64,000 nt of DNA from a bacterium (GCA_008933615.1 WBUR01000003.1:16340-80339), one strand, 5' to 3'; positions 4,536 through 44,813 are shown, counted from the first letter of the stretch. Notes: generated by a model from the sequence alone, not told the origin. Numbers and translations are program-made.

Positions 4536-5837
4536 ATGGAAAAAGTTTTAACGAAAATGGTGGGTGTTGAGAACTCACAGAACATTGACGTTTATCTAAA
4601 ACACGGCGGTTATCAGGCATTACCGAAAGCGCTGAAAATGACTCCCGACGAACTGATTCAGATGATGAAAGATTCCGGCGTGCGTGGGCGCGGGGGCGCA
4701 GGATTTCCTACGGGGATGAAATGGAGCTTTTTGCCTAAAGACAATCCGAAGCCGAGATACCTTTTGTGTAATGCGGACGAATCGGAACCGGGAACATTCA
4801 AGGACCGCGTACTGATGGAAGACGATCCGCATCAGGTCATCGAAGGATTGATTATTTCTTCGTTTGCTATCCAGGCGCATACCTGCTACATCTACATTCG
4901 TGGTGAATATGTGACCGGGGCTAAGATATTACATAAGGCTATCAATGAAGCGTATGAAAAAGGATACCTCGGAAAAAATATTTTAGGCAGCGGATTTGAA
5001 CTTGATATTACCGTTCATCGCGGCGCCGGCGCTTATATCTGCGGTGAAGAAACCGGATTGATCGAGTCGCTGGAAGGCAAACGCGGATGGCCGCGTATCA
5101 AGCCTCCGTTTCCGGCAGTGTATGGCGTATTCGGATGCCCCACGATCGTGAATAACGTTGAGACGCTGGTGACGCCGATCCATATCATCAACCGCGGCGT
5201 GCAGTGGTGGAAAGATAACGAACCGAAACTGTACTGCATGAGCGGACATCTCACGCGTCCGGGCACGTACGAAGCGAAGATCGGCACCAATTTGATGGAG
5301 TTGATCAACGATCACTGCGGTGGAATTCCCAACGGAAGAAAATTAAAAGCCGTTATTCCCGGCGGTTCGTCCGTTCCCGTGCTGCGCGCTGAGGAATGCG
5401 ACGTGGCGATGGATTTTGACGCGCTCGCTAAAGCCGGATCGGCTTTGGGTTCCGCCGGATGCATGGTAATGGATGATACCACCTGCATGGTCAATGCGCT
5501 GTGGAATCTGATGAAATTTTATTCTCATGAATCCTGCGGCCAGTGCACGCCGTGCCGTGAAGGCACGCATTGGCTGGAAATGATCTGCGGACGAATTGAA
5601 ACGGGCAGAGGCCGGATGGAAGATCTGGAACTGATGCTTGAGACGGCGAATAACATTGCCGGACGTACGATTTGTCCATTAGGCGATGCTGCGGCGTGGC
5701 CGGTAGCAGGATTGCCGGACAAGAATAAAGGCGGCGATCTTAACGGCCAGAGTTTTATAAATAAGTTCCGCGAGGAATTTGAATATCACATAACCAACAA
5801 AAAATGTAAAGTAACGATTCCGCATGAGTGGAATTGA
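4536..5837 (+). CDS. nuoF: NADH-quinone oxidoreductase subunit F (51 kDa; FMN/NADH-binding, [4Fe-4S])
   Basis: GRGGAGFPTG FMN-site motif and ESCGQCTPCREG 4Fe-4S motif. Confidence 0.9.
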   Translation: MEKVLTKMVGVENSQNIDVYLKHGGYQALPKALKMTPDELIQMMKDSGVRGRGGAGFPTGMKWSFLPKDNPKPRYLLCNADESEPGTFKDRVLMEDDPHQVIEGLIISSFAIQAHTCYIYIRGEYVTGAKILHKAINEAYEKGYLGKNILGSGFELDITVHRGAGAYICGEETGLIESLEGKRGWPRIKPPFPAVYGVFGCPTIVNNVETLVTPIHIINRGVQWWKDNEPKLYCMSGHLTRPGTYEAKIGTNLMELINDHCGGIPNGRKLKAVIPGGSSVPVLRAEECDVAMDFDALAKAGSALGSAGCMVMDDTTCMVNALWNLMKFYSHESCGQCTPCREGTHWLEMICGRIETGRGRMEDLELMLETANNIAGRTICPLGDAAAWPVAGLPDKNKGGDLNGQSFINKFREEFEYHITNKKCKVTIPHEWN

Positions 5838-5863
5838 TTCCTCCGCTCGGCGAGGAGGGTGTC

Positions 5864-6610
5864 ATGAAAAAGTATTTAGTTCGGACTGCTATAATAGTTC
5901 TTTTTAGTATATCGGTTTCGGCAGTTTATTTAAGTTGTTCAGATGACGAAACCGCCATGTTCTTTGATTTAACGGGAAATTGGTCCGGAATGGCGGTTCC
6001 GCCTAACGGAGCCGCTTTGATTGATCTTAGTATTGTGCAGGATACTACAGGATATGTGACCGGAACTTTATACATTCGCGGTCAGGAACCGGATACTGCA
6101 ACTATTTCCGGAACCGTGAGTAACGGTCGTTTCACCGGCACGGCTTCCAATATAGAATGCCCGGTCAACGTAGACCTTGAAATTGAGAATGATGGAACGG
6201 CGCTCGTTGGTAATGCGTCTGGCGAGGGTTCCGACACCTGTTCTGCAGAGTTTGTTTATCTTACGCTGTACAAGGACCTGCCGCCGTCCGTAAATGTAAC
6301 CGGAACGTGGTCCGGGACCCATTCCAGTACTGAAGGCAGCGGAAGTTTCACTATGGTGATCACTCAGAGTGGCGAAACGGTGAGCGGGACAATTTATGAC
6401 GAAGACACCACTGCCATAAACGGCCGCGTATTCGGCAATGCTTTTGCGGCCACAATCAGCGGTTCGGATTGCCCGATTCTGATTTTGATGGAAGTTAGCA
6501 ATAATACCATGAATGGCGCTTATGCGAATACCGGCGAAGGCCCGGGCGAATGCTTGGATAAAGGAACCGTTGCCGCCAGCCGTTTGACGGGAAAACGTTT
6601 TCAAAATTAG
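5864..6610 (+). CDS. predicted lipoprotein of unknown function inserted between nuoF and nuoG
   Basis: Signal peptide with lipobox (AVYLSCSDD). GGAGGG Shine-Dalgarno at about 5851-5856, 7 nt before ATG 5864. The track ORF starts at 5828. The sequence is Gly/Thr/Ser-rich and probably beta-rich. Confidence 0.5.
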   Translation: MKKYLVRTAIIVLFSISVSAVYLSCSDDETAMFFDLTGNWSGMAVPPNGAALIDLSIVQDTTGYVTGTLYIRGQEPDTATISGTVSNGRFTGTASNIECPVNVDLEIENDGTALVGNASGEGSDTCSAEFVYLTLYKDLPPSVNVTGTWSGTHSSTEGSGSFTMVITQSGETVSGTIYDEDTTAINGRVFGNAFAATISGSDCPILILMEVSNNTMNGAYANTGEGPGECLDKGTVAASRLTGKRFQN

Positions 6611-9383: not shown

Positions 9384-9992
9384 ATGGCTGTTTCGGTTAA
9401 AAACGTAACGGTGCCGCGCGGCAAGAACTGGGTTGACAATACGTATGTTATTCCGGTGATCAAAGGGTTGATCATCACACTGAGGCATATGTTCAAGAAG
9501 CCTATTGTCTTAAATTATCCGGAAAACAAAAAAGTGCTTCCGCCGAATTACCGCGGCTTGCACATGCTGACCCGGGACGATCAAGGCCGAGAAAAATGCG
9601 TTGCCTGCGAAATGTGTTCTACCGCATGTCCTGCCGACTGCATTCGTATCGTTGCTAATGACAGCGGCGATGTATGGAAAGATAATTTTGAAAACCGCGA
9701 AAAACATCCGATCGTTTTTGAGATTGACGAACTGCGCTGCATATTCTGCGGCATGTGCGTGGAAGCCTGTCCGGAAGACGCGATCGACATGACCGACATG
9801 CATAATTTAGCCGATTACACACGCCAGGATTTTATTTACGATAAGGAACGATTGCTCGGAGTTTATGATGAATATATTAAACGTCATCCTGATCACGCAA
9901 AACGCCGTGACGGTGAATTCAAGGCGATGAAGAACTCCAGTTACTTTAGCGTAGTCTCGGTGGAAAACGCAAAAAAGCCGGGCGGGCATTAA
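9384..9992 (+). CDS. nuoI: NADH-quinone oxidoreductase subunit I (2x[4Fe-4S] ferredoxin)
   Basis: Two CxxCxxCxxxCP motifs (CVACEMCSTACP; CIFCGMCVEACP). Confidence 0.9.
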   Translation: MAVSVKNVTVPRGKNWVDNTYVIPVIKGLIITLRHMFKKPIVLNYPENKKVLPPNYRGLHMLTRDDQGREKCVACEMCSTACPADCIRIVANDSGDVWKDNFENREKHPIVFEIDELRCIFCGMCVEACPEDAIDMTDMHNLADYTRQDFIYDKERLLGVYDEYIKRHPDHAKRRDGEFKAMKNSSYFSVVSVENAKKPGGH

Positions 9993-10027
9993 GATTATTT
10001 TTAGCAAAGGATAAGCAGAGGTTTTTT

Positions 10028-12960: not shown

Positions 12961-14553
12961 ATGGAAACTTACAGTGCAATCGTTTTATCGTTATTGATAT
13001 TTGTTCCTCTCGCCGGCGTGGTGATGCTTGCTTTTATTCCGCGCAGCCAGGAGAACACCATAAAAACCGTTACGCTCGGCGTCGCTTCGCTCGTGTTTAT
13101 ACTTTCTGTGCCGATGTATTTTGCATACGATATTTCCAATCCGGACATGCAATTTGCATACATAGCGAACTGGATACCGAATTGGGGCGCATATTATTCT
13201 ATCGGCGTTGACGGGCTCAGCCTGCTGCTTATTTTGTTAACGACTTTTATCATGCCGTTAGCCGTGATCGCATCGTGGAAAAGCGTTCATTTTCATGTCA
13301 AAGGATTTATGATCTCGCTGCTTCTGCTGGACGCAGGAATGGTCGGCGTTTTCTGCGCGCGCGACATGCTTTTGTTCTATGTTTTCTGGGAAGCGATGCT
13401 CGTTCCGATGTATCTGATCATTGGCATTTGGGGGCATGAACAGCGTATCCGGGCGGCCGTAACATTCTTCATATATACGATGGCAGGCAGTTTATTCATG
13501 CTTGTTGCCATTATCTATATGTATTTTCAAACGGCCGCGGTTGTCGTAGATGGAACCCTTATTTCCAACCACTCCTTCGCAATTCAATCGTTTATGGCGC
13601 TGCAATTGCCCTACGACACGCAGGTCTATTTATTCTGGGCATTCGCGTTAGCGTTCATGGTCAAAGTCCCGATGTTTCCGTTTCATACCTGGCTTCCGCT
13701 CGCGCACGTGGAAGCGCCGACGGCAGGCTCCGTTGATCTTGCCGCTATTCTTCTTAAAATGGGGCCCTACGGATTTATGCGATTCTGCATTTCTTTTTTC
13801 CCTGCAGTATCGGAACAATATACTCCGGTCATCATTGTACTTGCTCTGGTCGGAATTATTTATGGTGCGCTTGTGGCCATGGTGCAGCCCGACGCGAAAA
13901 AATTAATCGCCTATTCCTCCGTAAGCCATTTGGGGTTTGTAATGCTGGGCATTTATTCTATGAATATTCAGTCTTGGCAGGGCGCCATGTTGATCATGGT
14001 CGGACACGGTATTTCCACCAGCGCGCTTTTCCTTATGGTCGGTTTATTGTATGACCGGCGTCATACGCGTTTGATAGAGGAGTTTGGAGGCCTTTGGAAA
14101 GTCATGCCGGTATTTTCAGTGATATTCATGGTCGTATGTTTATCGTCTCTTGGCTTGCCGGGAACGAACGGATTTGTAGGCGAATTTCTTGTTTTGATCG
14201 GCTCATTCAATTCATCATTGGATCACGCAAGACTTTACGCGACGATCGCCATGCTGGGCGTGATACTCGGGGCCGTTTATCTGCTTTGGATGTACCAGCG
14301 CATTGCGTTCGGCGAAATCAAAAACGAAAAGAACAAGTCACTTAAAGATTTGTCTCTGCGTGAATACGCCTTACTGATCCCGTTTGTACTGCTGATTTTC
14401 TGGTTCGGCGTATATCCTAAAACACTGACCGACAAAACCGAAGCCACGATGCAGAAAAATCTGAAGTCGTACAAAACTGCGATTGAAAATGCCAAGACGA
14501 CGTCCCCCGGCAACGAAATGAAAAAAAACGTAAACAATCTGCAAGTTAAATGA
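12961..14553 (+). CDS. nuoM: NADH-quinone oxidoreductase subunit M (antiporter-like)
   Basis: 530-aa antiporter-like subunit (FWEAMLVPMYLIIGIWG; HTWLPLAHVEAPTAGS). Confidence 0.9.
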   Translation: METYSAIVLSLLIFVPLAGVVMLAFIPRSQENTIKTVTLGVASLVFILSVPMYFAYDISNPDMQFAYIANWIPNWGAYYSIGVDGLSLLLILLTTFIMPLAVIASWKSVHFHVKGFMISLLLLDAGMVGVFCARDMLLFYVFWEAMLVPMYLIIGIWGHEQRIRAAVTFFIYTMAGSLFMLVAIIYMYFQTAAVVVDGTLISNHSFAIQSFMALQLPYDTQVYLFWAFALAFMVKVPMFPFHTWLPLAHVEAPTAGSVDLAAILLKMGPYGFMRFCISFFPAVSEQYTPVIIVLALVGIIYGALVAMVQPDAKKLIAYSSVSHLGFVMLGIYSMNIQSWQGAMLIMVGHGISTSALFLMVGLLYDRRHTRLIEEFGGLWKVMPVFSVIFMVVCLSSLGLPGTNGFVGEFLVLIGSFNSSLDHARLYATIAMLGVILGAVYLLWMYQRIAFGEIKNEKNKSLKDLSLREYALLIPFVLLIFWFGVYPKTLTDKTEATMQKNLKSYKTAIENAKTTSPGNEMKKNVNNLQVK

Positions 14554-14560
14554 TTTTCAA

Positions 14561-15520
14561 ATGGTGGTGAATTTCAGGCTCCATTGTTCAACGCTCATTC
14601 TGCTTTTGTTCATTCCGTCGCCATTGCCGGCTTCTGATCGTTCGGGTTTTATAGAGTCTTCAGACAGCGTAAGAATTTATTATGAATGTGACGGGCATGG
14701 CGAACCTTTGGTTCTCATCGCCGGCGGGCCCGGAGATTCACACACCTATTTTAAACCGTATTTCAATAAACTAGCCAAAAAATATACCATAATATATTTT
14801 GACGCCCGCGGCCGCGGCCGTTCGACTAAACCGTCCAACGGGTCTTACAGTGTAGACAAGGACGTGGAAGACCTTGAAAATCTGCGAAGCAAGTTGGGCT
14901 ACTCTAAACTTAATATCTTTGGCCACTCGTACGGCGGTATAGTTGCAGAAAGTTATGCTCTTACTTATCCGGACAAAGTCGGGCGGCTTATACTGTGTAA
15001 CACCTTTCACAGCGCCGACGGATGGCAGGACAATATTGACAACTGCAATCGCCACATCCAGCAGAGTTATCCGGGCGAGTGGAAAAAACTTACGGGTCTG
15101 CGTCAGCGCATGACATCCAACACAAAAGAGTGGCGTGAAGCATACGATCCGTACATAACTAATCTGTATTGGTTCAGCGTTGCAAAAAGAAAGAAATATC
15201 TGGCAACCTATCAGACGTTGAGACGCGCTGAAGATGATTTTTCGGAAGATGTGTATTATGCGATTATTGGTTCGGATCCTGATTTTCAAGTCAACGGCAC
15301 CATGAAGGAACTCGATCTTAGGGACCAACTAAAAACACTGCGGATACCAACTCTCATTCTAGGAGGACGCGCTGACAGAATTGCAACGGTAAAGCAGGCA
15401 ATGGAAATTCATGATTCCATTCCGCAGGCAAAAAAATATATTTTTGAAAAAAGCGGTCATTTGCCGTTCGTTGAACAGAATAAAAAGTTCATTCATACGC
15501 TTGAACAGTTTCTAAAATAA
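14561..15520 (+). CDS. secreted alpha/beta-hydrolase (proline iminopeptidase/esterase-like)
   Basis: N-terminal signal peptide. Nucleophile elbow GHSYGG. LVLIAGGPG oxyanion region. It starts 8 nt after the nuoM stop. Confidence 0.65.
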   Translation: MVVNFRLHCSTLILLLFIPSPLPASDRSGFIESSDSVRIYYECDGHGEPLVLIAGGPGDSHTYFKPYFNKLAKKYTIIYFDARGRGRSTKPSNGSYSVDKDVEDLENLRSKLGYSKLNIFGHSYGGIVAESYALTYPDKVGRLILCNTFHSADGWQDNIDNCNRHIQQSYPGEWKKLTGLRQRMTSNTKEWREAYDPYITNLYWFSVAKRKKYLATYQTLRRAEDDFSEDVYYAIIGSDPDFQVNGTMKELDLRDQLKTLRIPTLILGGRADRIATVKQAMEIHDSIPQAKKYIFEKSGHLPFVEQNKKFIHTLEQFLK

Positions 15521-15534
15521 AACAGGACAACGCA

Positions 15535-18500
15535 TTGCCGGAAAAACATCACATACTCTGCCCCAATTGTGCAAAGACGACCACACTTGATCAGGGCGTT
15601 TGTCCGTTTTGCCGTTATACTTTTGCTGCGGATATAAAAAAATTTATTTCCTTATATAGCGATGTCATCGACAACGGCTTAGATGTTACGTCTGACCAGA
15701 TCTTGAAATTAGTGCAGGCACAGCGTTTCGAAGATGCGTCGTATCTCATTCAGACATTATTTGAAAAAGCGTATATGCATGACGCCGATTTTAGGAAAAT
15801 CGCATTTGCACTTCATGACCGGCATAAAGATGCATTGGCGTTAATTTGTTCCGAAAAAGCGCTTCAGATAAACCCGCAAGACCCGTGGAATCACCACTGT
15901 GCCGCGCAGTGTTATGGCGAGGTCGGCATACTCGAGAAAGCCGTAAAATACGGACAGGAAGCCGTTCAACTTTCGCCTAACGAACCGAGACACCACACGC
16001 TGCTCGCCGATATATTTGATAAACAAAATCAGTACACTGCTTCAGCGAAAGAATATATGCATGCGATTGCTCTAAACGATATGTATGAAAAAGATTTTGA
16101 CAACATCATCGACGACGCCGTCGATGTCGCCCAGGTGGAGGCGTATTATATCGAACTTCAGAATAGTTATCCAAATTCTGTGTCCATTTACCATGCTATG
16201 GGTAATCTGTATCTCGCCAAACTTCATTTTGAAAAAGCCGAGGAGTGTTACAAGAAGGCTTTGACCGTAAAACCCAACCAACCTGTTTTGCTGAATAAAC
16301 TGGCAGATGTATATCAGAGGGAAAACAAAACGGATTTGGCGCTGGTCGAATATAAGAAAGCTCTCGCTATCGATGGAAAAAATATAGAAAGCTTAAGAAG
16401 CCTTGGAAAACTGTACAAGGAAAAGGGCAATTGGGCTGAAGCGCTTACCTATTTTGAGAAAATTCTAAAACTTAATTCGAGAGACAGCAACGCCGCGTAT
16501 GAAACTAAGGAAATGTACCGAAAACTGAATAATTCGCAGAAAGCAATCGAGGTAATGAAAGAGTACCAGAAAGCGGATGTCAGTTATTTTAACTGGGCCA
16601 TGCATCATATTTTTGAAATTCTATATTACGATCTGAAGGACGATTTACAGCTCAGCGAGCTGGTGGAAAAAACCTATCCTAACAAAGTCAACGATTCATT
16701 CGTCTACGACTACTATGGATACAGCCTGATGAACCTTGGACGAATGGAAGAAGCGGTTAAATCTTTTGAACGATTCGTTGAACTTGAACCGAAGAATGCG
16801 CGTGTCATGCGTGAATTAGGGCGGGTTTTCTGCGATCTTCAAAAATACCAGGATGCGATCGATGTATTAACGAAATCGTTTGCGATTGAAAGTAAGAATT
16901 CGTACGGATTTTATTATCTCGCGCTGGCCTATCATAAATTAGGTAAAGACGACATTGCCAAAAGGACACTGGAAGACGGAAAGCAATTCGATCCGAATTA
17001 TAAATGGTTTGATGATTTGCTCTTTGAAATTGATCCGAACTATCAGTCCGCTCAGACGTCACATGAAAAGGCGGCTCAAGACACAAGTACGTCTACTTCA
17101 ACGGGTGTTTTAGGTGAATCGGTCATTGCCGGTATGCCTAATTTTCTTCGCGATCTGACGCAATTGGCCGGCGAAGGTAAGATCGATAATATATTTGGGC
17201 GGGAAACGGAGTTACGTGAACTGATCGAGGTCTTGTGCCGCCGGAGTAAGGCTAATCCGCTGATCGTCGGCCAGCCCGGTGTCGGTAAAACCGTGCTGGT
17301 CAATGGTTTGGCGCATCTTCTCGCCAAAGGAGAAGTGCCCGATATTCTCAGGCAATACCGATTACTGGAACTTGAAGTATTTGCCGTCGTGGCCGGCACG
17401 CGTTACGTAGGAACGCTTGAACAAAAATTTATGCAGCTGGCGCAATTTTGTCGCTCCAATAAAGTGATCATTTTTATCGATGAGCTGCACACCATGATGG
17501 GAGCGGGTTCATACAGTTCACATGAAACGGGCGGGCTTGATGAAATGTTCAAACCGTTGATGACCCAGCCGGATTTTAAATTAATCGGCGCGACCACGGA
17601 TGAAGAATATCAGAAAAACATTGCAAAGAGCGGCGCCTTTGACCGGCGCTTCACGCGCATTACGGTATTTGAGCCCGGCAAAGACGAAACGATGAAAATC
17701 ATTGAATCGCTTCGGGGCAAACTCGAGCCGTTTTATCATGTTACTATCAGCGAGAGAATGCTGCGAACCGTCGTGGACCTGTCAGAAAAATACGTTAAGA
17801 ACAGATTTTTTCCTGACAAGGCCTGCGATATTCTTGAACGCTCAGCTATTAAAGCAAGCCTGGCCCGCCCGCATAACAGCTTGGAAACACTGGCCGTTGG
17901 TGAAAAGCATATCGTTCAAGCCGTGTCTCAAGTCACGCGCATTCCGGAAAGTAATATACAAATTGAAGCCATGGGCGGGATGGCATCTTTGGAAGACCGC
18001 CTGCGCTCGCGTGTAATCGGACAGGAGGATGCAGTAGTTAAAGTTGCGGAAGTAGTGCGCATGACCAAAAGCGGTCTGGATATTAATCCCGACCGTCCTG
18101 ACGGCGTGTTTCTGTTTGTAGGGCCGACGGGCGTTGGGAAAACGGAACTTGCCAAAGCCCTGGCGGAAGCGCTGGAGGGAAGCGAAAAACGTTTGGTGCG
18201 AATTGACATGTCGGAATATAATGACCAGTACGCTTTGTCTAAATTAATCGGAACGGCGCCGGGTTTTGTAGGGTACGAAGACGAAGGGCGTTTAACCAAA
18301 GCCGTTCGTGAAGATCCTTCTGCAGTGATTCTTCTGGACGAAATTGAGAAAGCGCATCCGAAAATATACGAAGCTTTCCTGCAGGTTTTTGACGACGGGC
18401 GCATGACAGACGGAAAAGGGCAGACTATTTCTTTTTCCCACTCCACGATCGTCATGACGTCCAATCTCGGCGCGGAACATATTTACGGCAAGGTCAAACT

Positions 18501-18903
18501 CGGGTTCACCGGTGGAAACGTCGATGAAAACGCAGAGATCAAAGAAGCGATTACGGAATCGCTGCGCAAACATTTCACACCGGAATTTCTTAACCGCGTC
18601 GATGAAACCATATTCTTTAAATCTCTTGATGAAAACGTGTTGCAGCTTATCGCGCGCCAGAAAATAGAAATGATAATAAAACGGTTTGAAGAAAAAGAGA
18701 TACGCATTCACATCGACGATGAAGTCGTCGGATTATGTGTCAGAAATTTGGACATACGGCGCGAAGGCGCGCGTGGATTAAACCGCTCTATGGAAGAGAC
18801 GATCTCACGACCGTTGTCTAGGGTGATGATCGAAAACCCGACGTGCAGGGCGTATACGATCAAGCGGCACGAAAATGAAGTGCTTATTTTACGCGGAGCG
18901 TAA
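15535..18903 (+). CDS. ClpA/ClpC-like double AAA+ unfoldase with N-terminal zinc ribbon and TPR repeat domain
   Basis: N-terminal CPNCAKTTTLDQGVCPFC. About 450 aa of TPR-like repeats. D1 Walker A GQPGVGKT and Walker B IIFIDELH. D2 Walker A GPTGVGKT and Walker B ILLDEIEKAHP. There is no long ClpB M-domain. The apparent start codon is TTG at 15535. Confidence 0.8.
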   Translation: MPEKHHILCPNCAKTTTLDQGVCPFCRYTFAADIKKFISLYSDVIDNGLDVTSDQILKLVQAQRFEDASYLIQTLFEKAYMHDADFRKIAFALHDRHKDALALICSEKALQINPQDPWNHHCAAQCYGEVGILEKAVKYGQEAVQLSPNEPRHHTLLADIFDKQNQYTASAKEYMHAIALNDMYEKDFDNIIDDAVDVAQVEAYYIELQNSYPNSVSIYHAMGNLYLAKLHFEKAEECYKKALTVKPNQPVLLNKLADVYQRENKTDLALVEYKKALAIDGKNIESLRSLGKLYKEKGNWAEALTYFEKILKLNSRDSNAAYETKEMYRKLNNSQKAIEVMKEYQKADVSYFNWAMHHIFEILYYDLKDDLQLSELVEKTYPNKVNDSFVYDYYGYSLMNLGRMEEAVKSFERFVELEPKNARVMRELGRVFCDLQKYQDAIDVLTKSFAIESKNSYGFYYLALAYHKLGKDDIAKRTLEDGKQFDPNYKWFDDLLFEIDPNYQSAQTSHEKAAQDTSTSTSTGVLGESVIAGMPNFLRDLTQLAGEGKIDNIFGRETELRELIEVLCRRSKANPLIVGQPGVGKTVLVNGLAHLLAKGEVPDILRQYRLLELEVFAVVAGTRYVGTLEQKFMQLAQFCRSNKVIIFIDELHTMMGAGSYSSHETGGLDEMFKPLMTQPDFKLIGATTDEEYQKNIAKSGAFDRRFTRITVFEPGKDETMKIIESLRGKLEPFYHVTISERMLRTVVDLSEKYVKNRFFPDKACDILERSAIKASLARPHNSLETLAVGEKHIVQAVSQVTRIPESNIQIEAMGGMASLEDRLRSRVIGQEDAVVKVAEVVRMTKSGLDINPDRPDGVFLFVGPTGVGKTELAKALAEALEGSEKRLVRIDMSEYNDQYALSKLIGTAPGFVGYEDEGRLTKAVREDPSAVILLDEIEKAHPKIYEAFLQVFDDGRMTDGKGQTISFSHSTIVMTSNLGAEHIYGKVKLGFTGGNVDENAEIKEAITESLRKHFTPEFLNRVDETIFFKSLDENVLQLIARQKIEMIIKRFEEKEIRIHIDDEVVGLCVRNLDIRREGARGLNRSMEETISRPLSRVMIENPTCRAYTIKRHENEVLILRGA

Positions 18904-18943: not shown

Positions 18944-20410
18944 GTGGAAATAATTATACCCGATACAAACATGATGGCAATATTGCCTCAGATCATACTG
19001 TGCATCGGCGCGTGTCTCGTTCTGCTGCTCGGCGTTTTTGCGCATGGTATGAGAAAATGGATAGGTTACATATCTTTTTTTACATGTATGCTGGCCCTGA
19101 TCAGCGTATTCATGTCCTGGGACATGAATATTACGGCATTCAGCGGAATGATCACTATTAATTATTTTACAAACGCATTCTCCGCAATCATTCTAATGAG
19201 TTCCGCGCTGATCTGCCTCGTCACCCGTGACGATGTGGATGAACATAAGATCGGCGAATTCTTCTCGATAGCGTTGATGTCCACCATGGGTATGCTGGTC
19301 ATGGCTTCAAGCCTCAATCTCATGGTGATTTTTCTCGGTCTGGAGATCATGTCCATAGGACTCTACGTCATGATCAGTTTGAATCGCGCACGCATTCGAT
19401 CGCTCGAGGCCGGAATGAAATACTTCCTGCTCGGGGCATTTTCATCTGGATTTTTTCTATATGGAATTTCTCTGACATACGGCGCCACCGGCAGTTTTGA
19501 TCTTGCGCGGATAGCGCAATATTTGCAGACCAACAATTTACTCGGCGATCCGCTTATGATGGCCGGTTTAGGTTTGCTCCTGATCGGATTCGGATTTAAA
19601 GTTGCGCTGGTTCCTTTTCACATGTGGTCGCCCGATGTATATCAGGGATCTCCCGCGCCGATCACGGCTTTCATCGCCACCGGCCCAAAAGCCGCGGCCT
19701 TTGCAGCATTCGCACGGGTTTTCATAGATACGTTCGGCGGGTTGCATTTGGATTGGTCCAATGTGCTTTTCTGGATTTGTATTCTGAGTATGGTTGGCGG
19801 AAATCTTATGGCGTTAATCCAAACCGATATTAAACGTATGCTTGCGTTTTCAAGTATTTCGCATGCCGGGTATATTATCATGGCGATCATCGCAGGGCCT
19901 GTACTAATGACAAGCGATCCAACCGCGGCGCCGGCATCCATTATCTATTATGTGATGGTTTATGCTCTGACCAATATCACTGCGTTTACGATCATCCATG
20001 TTTTCGAAAGCCGTGAGGGTAAGAATCTCAAAGTAGACGACTTTGCCGGCTTTGGATTTCGTTATCCGCTATTAGCCGTCAGCATGTCCATCTCTATGTT
20101 GTCCATGGCAGGATTTCCGTTGACCGGCGGCTTCATCGGAAAATTCCAGGTTTTTTCAGCAGCCGTAGATGCGGGGTATGTGGTGCTGACGATCATCGCC
20201 GTTATCACGACGGTCATTTCGGTGTATTACTATCTCGGCGTTATGGTTAAGATGTATTTCAGCGATGCGGAGCAGGAACTGGAAGATATTTATGTTTCAA
20301 AAAGTACCTGGGCAACCATCCTTATAACGAGTACAGGATTGATTTTACTGGGAGTAATTCCTTCTATTCTCGCTGATGTTGTTAAAGGATTATTCCATCT
20401 TATTTTATAA
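18944..20410 (+). CDS. nuoN: NADH-quinone oxidoreductase subunit N (antiporter-like)
   Basis: 488-aa antiporter-like membrane subunit (HMWSPDVYQGSPAPITAFIATGPKAAA). It is the last nuo gene. Confidence 0.85.
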   Translation: MEIIIPDTNMMAILPQIILCIGACLVLLLGVFAHGMRKWIGYISFFTCMLALISVFMSWDMNITAFSGMITINYFTNAFSAIILMSSALICLVTRDDVDEHKIGEFFSIALMSTMGMLVMASSLNLMVIFLGLEIMSIGLYVMISLNRARIRSLEAGMKYFLLGAFSSGFFLYGISLTYGATGSFDLARIAQYLQTNNLLGDPLMMAGLGLLLIGFGFKVALVPFHMWSPDVYQGSPAPITAFIATGPKAAAFAAFARVFIDTFGGLHLDWSNVLFWICILSMVGGNLMALIQTDIKRMLAFSSISHAGYIIMAIIAGPVLMTSDPTAAPASIIYYVMVYALTNITAFTIIHVFESREGKNLKVDDFAGFGFRYPLLAVSMSISMLSMAGFPLTGGFIGKFQVFSAAVDAGYVVLTIIAVITTVISVYYYLGVMVKMYFSDAEQELEDIYVSKSTWATILITSTGLILLGVIPSILADVVKGLFHLIL

Positions 20411-20437
20411 TCGGCAATACTGTGAAAGCGATACCCG

Positions 20438-20471
20438 TTAGTTCTTGCCGAATGGTGAGAACTAATTTTTT
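20438..20471 (+). terminator. rho-independent terminator after nuoN
   Basis: Stem TTAGTTCT / AGAACTAA with a 12-nt loop, followed by a run of six T. It is 28 nt after the nuoN stop. Confidence 0.6.
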
Positions 20472-41546: not shown

Positions 41547-44500
41547 ATGAAAAGCTTATTACTCTTATTTCTTGGACTTATGTTTTTAAACACTCTGTAT
41601 TCACAGGAAGAAGCCCGTCTGCTGAGATTTCCTGCAACGAACGGCAGTTATATCGTATTTTCGTATGCCGGTGATTTGTATACGGTCGGCATCGACGGCG
41701 GTATTGCGCGAAAACTGACGAATCACGAAGGTTACGAAATGTTCCCGCGTTTTTCTCCGGACGGAGAATCATTGGCATTTACAGGCCAGTATGACGGTAA
41801 TACGGAAGTGTACCTCATGACGGCTGGCGGCGGCATTCCCAAACGCCTGACCGTCACCGCTACGCTGGGACGAGACGATGTATCGGATCGTATGGGCCCT
41901 AATAACTTGGTTATGACGTGGAAAAATAAAACTCCGGAAATCGTATTTCGTTCACGCATGACTTCCTACAACGATTTTATCGGACAATTGTACTCGGTAA
42001 ATGTCGACGCAAGTCCGGCAAGTGAATTACCGCTGCCGCGCGGAGGATTTTGTTCGTTTTCACCCGATGATAAAAAAATGGCCTACAATCGTGTATTCCG
42101 GGAATTCCGTACGTGGAAGCGCTACCGCGGCGGTATGGCGGACGATATCTGGATCTATGATTTTGAGACCAAAAAGATAGAAAATATTACGAACAACGAC
42201 GCGCAGGATATTATCCCCATGTGGGCGGGTAATAAAATATATTTCCTTTCCGACCGCGATGTGAATAAGAGGATGAATCTATATTCGTATGATCTGGGAA
42301 CGAAAGTAACTAAACAGCTCACAACCTTTACCGATTTCGACATCAAATTTCCCTCTCTCGGCAAAGGCGCCATTGTTTTCGAAAATGGCGGATTTATATT
42401 TCGCTTTGATCTGGCGAGTGAAAAAGCCGTGATAGTTCCTATTCAGGTCAAGGAAGATTTTACGACCGGGCGCGGCGGCCTGATCAATGTGAGCAGAAAC
42501 ATCAGCAATTATGAAATTTCTCCCGATGGCAAGCGCGCATTATTCGGCGCACGCGGCGATGTGTTCACAGTTCCGGCCAAAAACGGCATCACGCGGAACC
42601 TGACTCAAAGTTCCGGCGTGCATGAACGCAACTCCAAATGGTCGCCTGATGGAAAATGGATCGCATTTATTTCCGATCAATCGGGTGAAAATGAAATTTG
42701 GATAATGCCTCAAGACGGCAGCGCGAAACCTACACAGATCACCAAAGGAGCAGACACGTATTACTACTCAATTTACTGGTCGCCGGACAGTAAAAAAATT
42801 CTGTGGGGTGACAAAAAACTCCGCCTTCGTTTTGTGGACGTGAACACTAAGACGATCACGGAAGTTGAAAAAGCCTCCGCATGGGAAATTACACAATATG
42901 GGTGGTCGCCTGACAGTAAGTGGATCACGTACGGCAAACCGGAAGAAGAAGGCATGAATAAGATTTATGTTTATTCTCTGGACCAGAAAAAATCGTTCGA
43001 TGTGACGGACGGATGGTATGACGCCAATAGTCCGGCGTTCAGCAGTGACGGCAAATATTTACTCTTTGCATCCAGCCGGGATTTTAATCCAATTTATAGT
43101 CAGACGGAGTGGAACCACGCATATCAGGATATGGAGCGCGTGTATTTCGTGACTCTTTCGAAAGATACCGATTCGCCGTTTAAACTGAAGAACGATGAAG
43201 TGGAAATAAAAAAAGAGGAAACAAAGGCCGAATCCAAAGATGCCAAAAAAGATGAACCCTCAAAATCTGATAAAAAAGAAACGGTTGTGAAAGTGGATAT
43301 GGACGGAATTAAATCGCGCATCATAGGTTTGCCGATTTCATCCGCTAACTATTTTAATCTTGCCTGTGTCGATGACAAAGTCTACTACAATCGTAAGAGC
43401 AGTAAAGACGAAAAAAACATTTTCCTGATGTATGACCTTAAAGACCAAAAAGAAACAGAACTGGGTCAAATTGACGGATATGAGATATCTACAGATAACA
43501 AAAAAATGATCGTTTCACAAAGCGGCAGCCACGCCATCATCGACCTTCCCAAGGGAAAAATTGAAATAAAAGACAAACTAAACACCTCAGGCATGGAAAT
43601 GAAACTGGACCGTCACGCCGAATGGGTTCAGATCTATAATGAATGCTGGCGGCAAATGCGTGATTTCCTTTATGATCCGAATCTGCATGGCGTGGACTGG
43701 GAAGGAGTTCGCAACAAATATGCGCCGCTTGTGTCGTATGTAAATCATCGGAACGATTTGACGTACATCATTGGAGAGATGATAGGGGAGCTTAATATCG
43801 GCCACGCTTACGTCGGCGGCGGCGACCGCCCGCAGGCGAAACGAATTCCACTCGGTCTTCTGGGGGCTATGTTGGAAAGGGACCCTGGTACAAAATATTA
43901 TCGCATTACGAAAATTCTCAACGGACAGAATTGGGATAAGACAACCCGCTCGCCGTTTACCGAAGTTGGCGTCAACGTCAATGAAGGCGAATACGTTATT
44001 GCAGTTAACGGCCAGCCGACAAACCAGATGAATAATATTTACGAAGCGCTGGTGAATACCGCAGATAAACAAGTGATTTTAAAGGTTAATTCCAAGGCAA
44101 CGGATACGGGCGCGCGTGAAGTATCCATCACGCCGATCGGCGACGAATCAAATTTGTATTATTACAAATGGGTTCAGACCAATATCGACAAAGTTGCCAA
44201 AGCAACCGGCGGAAAGGTCGGATATATCCACGTTCCAAACATGGGTGTTGAAGGTTTGAATGAGTTTGTCAAACATTTTTATCCGCAGCTTCGCAAAAAA
44301 GCGCTCATCATTGACGTTCGCGGTAACGGCGGCGGCAATGTTTCCCCAATGCTGATCGAACGGCTGCGTCGAGAGCTTGTGATGGTCAGTTCCGCCAGAA
44401 ATCTGTCGATCACGCCTGACCCGAACGCGATGATTCTTGGTCCGATGGTCTGCCTGCTCAATGAGTTTTCGGCTTCTGACGGAGATTTGTTTCCGTATCG

Positions 44501-44813
44501 TTTTAAAAAAATGAAATTAGGCAAACTCATTGGGAAACGCAGTTGGGGCGGGGTTGTGGGTATCCGCGGCTCTCTTCCGCTGGCGGACGGCGGCTATTTG
44601 AATCGCCCGGAATTCTCTCGTTACGGAAGCGACGGCAAAGAGTGGATCATTGAAGGTTATGGCGTGGATCCGGATATTTATGTAGATAACGATCCCGCCA
44701 AGGAATACGCCGGTACGGATGAACAACTCAACAAGGCGATCGAGGTAATCCAGGATGAATTGAAACAGCATCCGCAGGAATTACCCAAAGCGCCGGACTA
44801 TCCGAAAAAATAA
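41547..44813 (+). CDS. tricorn protease homologue (S41-family, beta-propeller + PDZ + peptidase)
   Basis: 1088 aa. Signal peptide. Repeated WSPDGK propeller blades. Central PDZ. C-terminal S41 catalytic region (GPMVCLLNEFSASDGDLF; KRSWGGVVG). Confidence 0.8.
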   Translation: MKSLLLLFLGLMFLNTLYSQEEARLLRFPATNGSYIVFSYAGDLYTVGIDGGIARKLTNHEGYEMFPRFSPDGESLAFTGQYDGNTEVYLMTAGGGIPKRLTVTATLGRDDVSDRMGPNNLVMTWKNKTPEIVFRSRMTSYNDFIGQLYSVNVDASPASELPLPRGGFCSFSPDDKKMAYNRVFREFRTWKRYRGGMADDIWIYDFETKKIENITNNDAQDIIPMWAGNKIYFLSDRDVNKRMNLYSYDLGTKVTKQLTTFTDFDIKFPSLGKGAIVFENGGFIFRFDLASEKAVIVPIQVKEDFTTGRGGLINVSRNISNYEISPDGKRALFGARGDVFTVPAKNGITRNLTQSSGVHERNSKWSPDGKWIAFISDQSGENEIWIMPQDGSAKPTQITKGADTYYYSIYWSPDSKKILWGDKKLRLRFVDVNTKTITEVEKASAWEITQYGWSPDSKWITYGKPEEEGMNKIYVYSLDQKKSFDVTDGWYDANSPAFSSDGKYLLFASSRDFNPIYSQTEWNHAYQDMERVYFVTLSKDTDSPFKLKNDEVEIKKEETKAESKDAKKDEPSKSDKKETVVKVDMDGIKSRIIGLPISSANYFNLACVDDKVYYNRKSSKDEKNIFLMYDLKDQKETELGQIDGYEISTDNKKMIVSQSGSHAIIDLPKGKIEIKDKLNTSGMEMKLDRHAEWVQIYNECWRQMRDFLYDPNLHGVDWEGVRNKYAPLVSYVNHRNDLTYIIGEMIGELNIGHAYVGGGDRPQAKRIPLGLLGAMLERDPGTKYYRITKILNGQNWDKTTRSPFTEVGVNVNEGEYVIAVNGQPTNQMNNIYEALVNTADKQVILKVNSKATDTGAREVSITPIGDESNLYYYKWVQTNIDKVAKATGGKVGYIHVPNMGVEGLNEFVKHFYPQLRKKALIIDVRGNGGGNVSPMLIERLRRELVMVSSARNLSITPDPNAMILGPMVCLLNEFSASDGDLFPYRFKKMKLGKLIGKRSWGGVVGIRGSLPLADGGYLNRPEFSRYGSDGKEWIIEGYGVDPDIYVDNDPAKEYAGTDEQLNKAIEVIQDELKQHPQELPKAPDYPKK

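Follow-up and report, generated by a model that had tools for sequence, protein, structure and literature searches.

The unfoldase ClpA of Escherichia coli, which acts in ClpAP, has two AAA+ rings, no M-domain and a hydrophobic-Gly-hydrophobic loop for ClpP in its second ring (D2). ClpC, known from the ClpC-MecA-ClpP systems of Bacillus subtilis and Staphylococcus aureus, is acted on by MecA and McsB through its Clp_N domain and its M-domain (a UVR coiled coil set into the small subdomain of the first ring), and ClpX and ClpE carry an N-terminal C4 zinc module before the ATPase, which in ClpX dimerises and binds adaptors and substrates. Here we describe a protein which unites a zinc ribbon (ZnR), a long region of tetratricopeptide repeats (TPR) and two AAA+ rings, and whose gene lies, together with that of an alpha/beta hydrolase, between nuoM and nuoN in the complex I (nuo) operon of a bacterium. 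The locus is part of a 64,000-nucleotide stretch (GCA_008933615.1 WBUR01000003.1:16340-80339), which is called the window below and in whose coordinates positions are given unless another locus is named. The protein is referred to as ZnR-TPR-Clp and its gene as the Clp gene.

The AAA+ core of ZnR-TPR-Clp has the ring number and ClpP loop of ClpA and likewise no M-domain, and it aligns with ClpA in a single collinear match (query residues 533-1098 to ClpA 168-720, 1.4e-115), whereas the alignments with ClpC and ClpB break into two stretches that leave out the M-domain. Unlike ClpA, it lacks Clp_N and with it a docking site of the ClpS type; it has a zinc ribbon and about 470 aa of TPR instead, and the first ring (D1) contains the invariant insert SYSSHETGG. 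The best sequence match among solved structures is ClpC (1.2e-131; protomer template modelling score, TM-score, 0.85-0.87), but both Clp_N and the M-domain of ClpC are missing, so that the adaptor logic must differ from that of ClpC. The zinc module before the ATPase recalls ClpX and ClpE. ClpX, however, has one AAA+ ring where the window protein has two, with a long TPR solenoid after the zinc module, and the ClpE chain of PDB 29hb, which lacks a TPR region, is a weaker match (5.9e-118). With a ClpA-like core layout, a sequence nearest to ClpC and a zinc start as in ClpX/ClpE, the protein is, as far as sequence comparison goes, best filed as a new Hsp100/Clp subfamily, since it lacks Clp_N and the M-domain and stays below the threshold of every curated model.

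Mitochondrial ClpXP removes damaged N-module subunits of complex I (PMC7118099), and plant FTSH3 acts on PSST (PMC10396367). These AAA+ proteases for damaged complex I subunits offer the functional model that the operon context suggests here, although their genes lie apart from those of complex I and they, unlike the window protein, lack a TPR head. Genes of other kinds do occur in complex I clusters: the nqo clusters of Rhodothermus marinus reportedly carry nhaD and pcd (said to be a finding of Melo et al. in 2005), and a CitMHS_2 transporter gene is described below. Those are transporters or small enzymes, whereas the gene considered here encodes an unfoldase. Literature searches on TPR-Clp fusions, on CLD3 biology and on genes inserted in nuo returned nothing relevant, and no report of a Clp unfoldase between nuoM and nuoN was found in the searchable literature.

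Architecture of the ZnR-TPR-Clp protein

A sequence-only reading had described the protein as a zinc ribbon and a TPR region joined to a ClpA-like double AAA+ unit without Clp_N, with both Walker A/B pairs retained and a KLGF loop that could be of the ClpP-docking type. Pfam and NCBIfam matches, alignments and an AlphaFold2 (AF2) model agree with it on each of these points and divide the gene as follows.

15535-15624, + strand: C4 zinc ribbon, residues 1-30 (C10, C13, C23, C26)
15634-17031, + strand: continuous TPR-like alpha-solenoid, residues 34-499, 28 helices, ~14 repeats
16486-17049, + strand: most conserved part of the N-region, residues 318-505
17053-17130, + strand: disordered Ser/Thr/acidic linker, residues 507-532
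17131-17874, + strand: AAA+ ring D1, residues 533-780, pore loop RYVG, invariant insert GAGSYSSHETGG
17269-17292, + strand: D1 Walker A, GQPGVGKT
17467-17484, + strand: D1 Walker B, IIFIDE
17875-18000, + strand: short D1-D2 linker, residues 781-822, no coiled-coil M-domain, only short helices in the AF2 model
18001-18900, + strand: AAA+ ring D2 with D2-small, residues 823-1122, Walker B LLDE, pore loop G[F/Y]VG
18121-18144, + strand: D2 Walker A, GPTGVGKT
18499-18507, + strand: L989-G990-F991, predicted ClpP-docking tripeptide in a flexible loop

Pfam recognises AAA (residues 576-706), AAA_lid_9 (7.6e-15), AAA_2 (residues 854-1024, 1.1e-57) and ClpB_D2-small (2.7e-08). The sequence features of Hsp100/Clp class I are thus present (two AAA+ modules with Walker A and B, aromatic pore loops, AAA_lid_9 and D2-small), and a surface loop in the last ring bears the hydrophobic-Gly-Phe/Leu tripeptide that characterises partners of ClpP. 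The curated Clp equivalogs are nevertheless not reached, the scores being 547.4 against a cutoff of 993.15 for ClpA (TIGR02639) and 548.2 against 1232.1 for ClpB (TIGR03346). An alignment of 19 homologues with 51-90% identity shows that the four zinc-ribbon cysteines, both Walker A/B pairs, both pore loops, the arginine fingers and G990-F991 are invariant or nearly so. L989-G990-F991 aligns with VGF of B. subtilis ClpC and AGF of S. aureus ClpC; the tripeptide is [L/M/V]GF family-wide, and the ClpB-type homologues of the same alignment have no such loop.

The AF2 model of the full protein (predicted local distance difference test, pLDDT, 86.4) contains the zinc ribbon, helices over residues 34-499, a disordered linker (507-532) and two canonical AAA+ modules, and gives TM-scores of 0.82-0.89 against ClpC, ClpA and ClpB protomers. 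Its mobile loops are the D1 insert (658-666) and the GF loop (986-994, pLDDT <50), low confidence over the latter being expected of a mobile docking loop. The D1 insert (GAGSYSSHETGGLDE, 17506-17532), between Walker B and sensor 1, is an invariant family signature; it exceeds its counterpart in ClpA/ClpC by 2-3 residues and is a floppy loop in the model. We hold this architecture, and the reading of the protein as an unfoldase, with high confidence, and the conserved tripeptide makes coupling to ClpP probable.

The zinc-ribbon pattern CxxC-x9-11-CxxC is kept in full-length homologues, and the AF2 models place short beta strands there. Clp_N (PF02861) is listed for no member of the family, whereas it is listed for ordinary ClpC/ClpB matches. 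Many Pfam TPR families match over residues ~50-500, and the N-region modelled alone reaches a pLDDT of 91.1 and a predicted TM-score (pTM) of 0.73. The TPR superhelices of OGT/SPINDLY (1w3b, 1.1e-14; 8dtf, 2.2e-13) and the TPR subunits of the anaphase-promoting complex (APC/C) are its best structural matches. In OGT/SPINDLY the superhelix captures substrate proteins and guides them towards the active site, but with TM-scores of 0.38-0.54 and 16-19% identity the resemblance is that of generic solenoids and does not permit a transfer of function by homology. The linker that follows the solenoid has a pLDDT <50 in both models and is poorly conserved.

Conservation is uneven along the N-region. 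Column conservation is 0.66 in the N-terminal TPRs and 0.88 in residues 318-505, compared with 0.87 in D1 and 0.89 in D2, and residues 318-505 are 58% identical even in the outlier homologue P0023 (51% overall). Since this segment is as conserved as the ATPase rings, we infer that it may form a constrained partner- or substrate-binding surface. An OGT-style asparagine ladder was considered for the conserved TPR module and rejected, the invariant Asn residues being ordinary TPR consensus positions. The C-terminal tails of the Nuo subunits were also considered as possible lineage-specific peptides for the TPR to bind; those of NuoF, NuoK and NuoI are conserved, to a degree indistinguishable from generic conservation.

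Operon layout and transcription

On the + strand the gene order is nuoA, C, D, E, F, a 260-aa open reading frame (ORF), nuoG-nuoM, hydrolase, Clp and nuoN. The part around the insertion and the end of the operon is laid out as follows.

12961-14553, + strand: nuoM, upstream boundary of the insertion (TIGR01972, 600.7 bits; Proton_antipo_M, 2.5e-78)
14561-15520, + strand: alpha/beta hydrolase gene, 319 aa, ATG start
15535-18903, + strand: ZnR-TPR-Clp gene, 1122 aa, TTG start
18944-20410, + strand: nuoN (TIGR01770, 416.6 bits), GTG start, GGAGG 6 nt upstream
20437-20466, + strand: intrinsic terminator-like hairpin, 13 bp plus U-run, z -2.17 versus shuffled sequence, operon end

The two ORFs that the sequence-only reading had placed between nuoM and nuoN lie exactly at 14561-15520 and 15535-18903. 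The gaps are small, as it had stated, but its values of 8, 15 and 41 nt are coordinate differences; nuoM/hydrolase, hydrolase/Clp and Clp/nuoN are in fact separated by 7, 14 and 40 nt. Its claim that no terminator occurs until after nuoN is borne out: none of the three internal junctions is more stably folded than its shuffled versions (z +0.60, +1.05 and +0.39), the hairpin starting 27 nt past nuoN is the sole strong terminator at the locus, and equivalent hairpins lie 3' of nuoN in most relatives. The tight gaps, the lack of an internal terminator and the GGAGG before nuoN make joint transcription of Clp and nuoN likely from the sequence, and in this genome the transcript would span all of nuo. 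A weak 7-bp terminator-like match overlapping the Clp stop codon was discarded as within chance expectation. Rfam gave no match in window positions 1-26000.

Conservation and inheritance of the insertion

A word-indexed search of 5.8 billion proteins yielded 23 full-length clusters, from 90% down to 51% identity, after which only ordinary Clp ATPases followed, matching in the AAA half at ~36%. When 1.84 billion representatives were scanned exhaustively by HMMER with the N-region, the protein's own cluster and one true relative, P0172, were recovered; the rest were generic multi-TPR proteins. P0172 is N-truncated (47% identity over 1033 aa) and lies on a 3.1-kb contig, on which the 82 nt downstream (L029 3061-3142) are degenerate GGTTT/GGGTTT repeats with no nuoN start; it was dropped as synteny evidence for want of a usable context. 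P0026, which also combines TPR with a double AAA unit, is more distant (31% identity), lacks a zinc ribbon and carries an MGF loop. The source databases label members of the family only as 'AAA family ATPase' or 'ClpC'.

Among GTDB species representatives, 18 family loci were found in 15 genomes, which are metagenome-assembled genomes titled 'Bacteroidota bacterium' or 'bacterium'. Window proteins were mapped onto these loci and onto Logan/ENA contigs in order to compare synteny. We call the lineage CLD3-type, a phylum label taken solely from the name of the ENA contig to which the window belongs, 'Bacteria_p_CLD3_contig_797'. Wherever enough flank is available in CLD3-type relatives, the Clp gene stands directly after nuoM (with or without the hydrolase gene) and/or directly before nuoN, so that the synteny check proposed with the sequence-only reading came out in favour of a stable position. 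The position is kept even in L008, L009 and L116, in which NuoM and NuoN are 47-52% identical to those of the window and Clp 70-76%. NuoN identity shows a sharp break, ranging from 92% to 51% in the CLD3-type clade as against <=46% in other phyla. A scan of JGI metagenomes for NuoN returned only these other phyla (<=46%) and was used as background for the adjacency of nuoM and nuoN. The two genes are contiguous there in 59 of 61 loci, in keeping with the earlier statement that they are normally uninterrupted; the remaining two have a CitMHS_2 transporter in the slot. In the family loci the Clp-nuoN gaps are 15-54 nt, and the GGAGG is conserved in 12 of 13.

Selection was estimated from the ratio of nonsynonymous to synonymous substitutions (dN/dS) between near-identical strains, because synonymous sites are saturated at the species level. 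The ratio is 0.023-0.028 for Clp and 0.015-0.026 for nuoL, nuoM and nuoN; between species, where dS is saturated, dN of Clp equals that of core nuo subunits. GC, GC at third codon positions (GC3) and relative synonymous codon usage (RSCU) agree with those of the neighbouring genes. A repeat search revealed no flanking direct or inverted repeats or element boundaries, and no integrase or transposase is found nearby. Inheritance looks vertical across the 15 species. Taken together, these comparisons show that the insertion is an old, vertically inherited part of the CLD3-type complex I operon, and neither an artefact nor a recent insertion.

The hydrolase and its probable export

The hydrolase matches Abhydrolase_1 (1.8e-32) and passes TIGR01250, the proline-iminopeptidase family (MEROPS S33), marginally (169.2 bits, cutoff 167.65), and falls below all equivalog models, including NF045948 and NF045945. 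Its triad, consisting of Ser in GHSYGG, Asp in GRADRI and His in SGHLPF, is kept in 10 aligned orthologues. The N-termini of all 10, read by eye, have a basic start, a hydrophobic run of 12-18 residues and an A-x-A-like end; the corresponding feature in the window is the following.

14561-14635, + strand: signal-like segment of the hydrolase, residues 1-25

The closest solved homologue is a proline iminopeptidase (PDB 1XRQ/1MTZ, 8e-28, collinear from residues 36-317 to 14-288), a cytosolic protein relative to which the window hydrolase has a 22-aa N-terminal extension. PDB 1MTZ is the tricorn-interacting factor F1 of Thermoplasma. F1 has the same S33 alpha/beta hydrolase fold and Ser-Asp-His triad, but lacks the signal-like N-terminal extension of the window hydrolase, which makes secretion or export a reasonable inference from the sequence. 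An exported hydrolase could not share a substrate pool with a cytoplasmic unfoldase. A tricorn-protease homologue (PD40, Tricorn_C1, PDZ_Tricorn, Peptidase_S41) is encoded elsewhere in the window (41547-44813); the co-occurrence of this gene and the F1-like hydrolase could be a functional pairing or a coincidence.

The hydrolase gene is under ~4x weaker constraint than the genes around it (dN/dS 0.118 between near-identical strains). Ten of the 15 GTDB genomes carry it, as does L028, and it is cleanly absent from L002/L003, L007, L010, L014, L015 and L117/L118. In a neighbour-joining tree of Clp proteins three hydrolase-less lineages branch first and one hydrolase-less pair is nested among hydrolase-bearing lineages; the tree is rooted on a long branch (P0023), and the order is only indicative. 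The basal and nested positions of these lineages suggest that the Clp gene came first, and that the hydrolase was added later and lost at least once.

Proposed role and alternative explanations

In the mechanism we propose, ZnR-TPR-Clp would form a hexameric, ATP-driven unfoldase whose Tyr/Phe pore loops thread substrates and whose GF loops ([L/M/V]GF) dock it on ClpP. The ZnR-TPR head would act as a built-in receptor, replacing Clp_N and a separate adaptor such as ClpS or MecA. To this point the mechanism is well supported by the loop alignments and by what is established for ClpA, ClpC and ClpX in their work with ClpP. Since the Clp gene is probably transcribed with nuoN and the nuo operon, the most likely clients would be unassembled or damaged respiratory-chain subunits or assembly intermediates, those of complex I first, and the hydrolase would be a later, dispensable passenger working in another compartment. 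The operon context suggests a protein quality-control factor tied to respiration and makes a dedicated role in complex I plausible. As a whole, the reading of the family as Hsp100 unfoldases which work with ClpP, bring their own TPR receptor, are co-expressed with complex I and serve respiratory clients is offered tentatively, its chances being a little short of even. A role linked to complex I in particular, suggested by the operon context and by analogy with known proteases, is possible though doubtful. Its strictest form, a dedicated unfoldase whose TPR head recognises a complex I subunit or intermediate and which, together with ClpP, extracts and degrades damaged or surplus subunits, we judge to be on the unlikely side.

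Several observations weigh against a dedicated role in complex I. The outlier P0023, with all motifs intact and no closer relatives found, is encoded at a non-nuo locus (L004 10001-13414), where its neighbours are a HAMP-SpoIIE-HATPase gene transcribed in the divergent direction and, after it, an ATP-grasp-like ORF, and the NuoN protein P0318 (54%; L114 6585-8024) is solitary, with no nuoM or Clp within 6.5 kb. The L114 and L004 contigs belong to the same sequencing series, have a GC of 0.53 each and show a tetranucleotide correlation of 0.97; to judge by series and composition they probably represent one sister organism (DRR538838/DRR538840), in which the Clp homologue and nuoN are both detached. 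In L002, one of the hydrolase-less relatives, the 150-nt gap between nuoM and Clp (9851-10000) holds a perfect 13-bp hairpin followed by U6 (AAAAGGUUCGCGC...GCGAACCUUUUUU), which resembles an intrinsic terminator or attenuator within the operon, possibly one that works in both directions, and Clp-nuoN may be a separate or attenuated unit there. The operon tolerates unrelated, variable cargo in other slots. Downstream, the order ddl-ECH is also conserved in most relatives, and part of the positional conservation of Clp therefore reflects general synteny or slow genome rearrangement. Motif scans found no clpP in the 64-kb window, and the hydrolase, being dispensable and probably exported, is unlikely to form a functional pair with Clp. 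ZnR-TPR-Clp could also be an unfoldase that works with ClpP on general or regulatory clients and has no link to complex I. Its gene would then have landed between nuoM and nuoN once and hitch-hiked on the operon ever since, retained for being essential in its own right and because rearrangement inside a 15-kb essential operon is costly. That P0023 functions beside a SpoIIE/HATPase gene fits this explanation, as do the location of the distant TPR-Clp protein P0026, likewise outside nuo, the exchangeable nature of the cargo in other slots, the CitMHS_2 transporter at the same junction in another lineage, and a conserved flanking synteny that includes ddl, ECH and an EF-G-like gene. However, the other passengers, namely the hydrolase and the 260-aa ORF (unk260), are variable or lost, whereas Clp is never lost and evolves as slowly as core nuo, and the tight coupling of Clp and nuoN is kept even without flanking synteny (L008, L009 and L116). 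We regard passive carriage of this kind as a serious possibility, if one clearly below an even chance.

Degradation need not be the outcome if the TPR head holds intermediates of complex I, or of another complex, while the AAA+ rings remodel them independently of ClpP. The assembly of bioenergetic complexes in membranes repeatedly involves TPR proteins as factors, e.g. Ycf3 for photosystem I, and a weak, sub-threshold match to Ycf3 (NF002725, 2.7e-08) and the equal scores of the core with the ClpB and ClpA models (548.2 vs 547.4 bits) would agree with such a chaperone or assembly factor. The invariant hydrophobic-Gly-Phe tripeptide, in a flexible loop at the position where ClpC and ClpA dock on ClpP and missing in ClpB-type relatives, argues against it, as does the absence of an M-domain for coupling to Hsp70, and we consider it improbable. 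The sequence-only reading had also allowed for a selfish insertion riding the operon. PADLOC does return partial matches to DolB and PDC-M37B (1e-39 to 2e-34), as might be expected of a mobile or defence cassette with a ClpB-like defence ATPase, but these are restricted to D2 (residues ~811-989), cover one generic AAA_2 module and are accompanied by no partner gene such as DolA. With neither flanking repeats nor an integrase or transposase, native GC, GC3 and RSCU, strong purifying selection (dN/dS ~0.025) and apparently vertical inheritance across the 15 species, a selfish, mobile or defence origin is very hard to sustain.

To our knowledge, the repair and turnover of complex I in bacteria is essentially uncharted, and an unfoldase of the nuo operon with its own receptor domain is a concrete candidate for a complex I turnover factor. 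If ZnR-TPR-Clp is indeed a dedicated unfoldase which, together with ClpP, degrades complex I subunits, it would be the first bacterial and genetically hard-wired counterpart of the mitochondrial ClpXP salvage of complex I. The replacement of Clp_N and separate adaptors by a zinc ribbon and a TPR superhelix is a new solution for the N-domain of Hsp100 proteins, with relevance for understanding and engineering substrate selection by AAA+ proteases.

Other cargo and neighbouring genes

The nuo operon of the CLD3-type lineage is a mosaic, with nuoB elsewhere and several cargo slots, which matters for the annotation of respiration in uncultured phyla. Between nuoF and nuoG the window contains unk260 (5828-6610), a lipoprotein-like ORF which overlaps the nuoF stop and has no Pfam or NCBIfam match. 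It is hypervariable, with 45% identity (dN 0.43) to the copy of a strain whose nuoL and nuoM are 98-99% identical. The same slot is occupied by a glyoxalase/3-dmu-9_3-mt-like gene in L002 and is empty in L007-L009. An extra ORF of 175 aa, secreted and DUF4154/YfiR-like, lies between hydrolase and Clp in L009 (9329-9856), where the Clp-nuoN gap is 174 nt. The solitary nuoN that encodes P0318 stands behind a terminator and follows a 595-aa ORF with no Pfam match on record. In an unrelated lineage, a CitMHS_2 transporter of 498 aa (3.4e-187) is encoded between nuoM and nuoN and overlaps the nuoM stop (L109 4473-5969; also L098), which marks the nuoM/nuoN junction as a recurrent insertion point.

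At the other end of the operon nuoB is missing: 52 nt separate nuoA from nuoC (1566-2544), an arrangement shared by four independent assemblies. Motif scans of the window detected no nuoB, and the 10 kb upstream do not contain one either; the subunit of the N2 cluster must therefore be encoded elsewhere. Upstream of nuoA and on the same strand (377-1354; L110 1879-8667) lie genes for a radical-SAM/SPASM protein, an MBOAT acyltransferase and two AMP-binding enzymes, a group which looks like a lipid or peptide-modification cluster.

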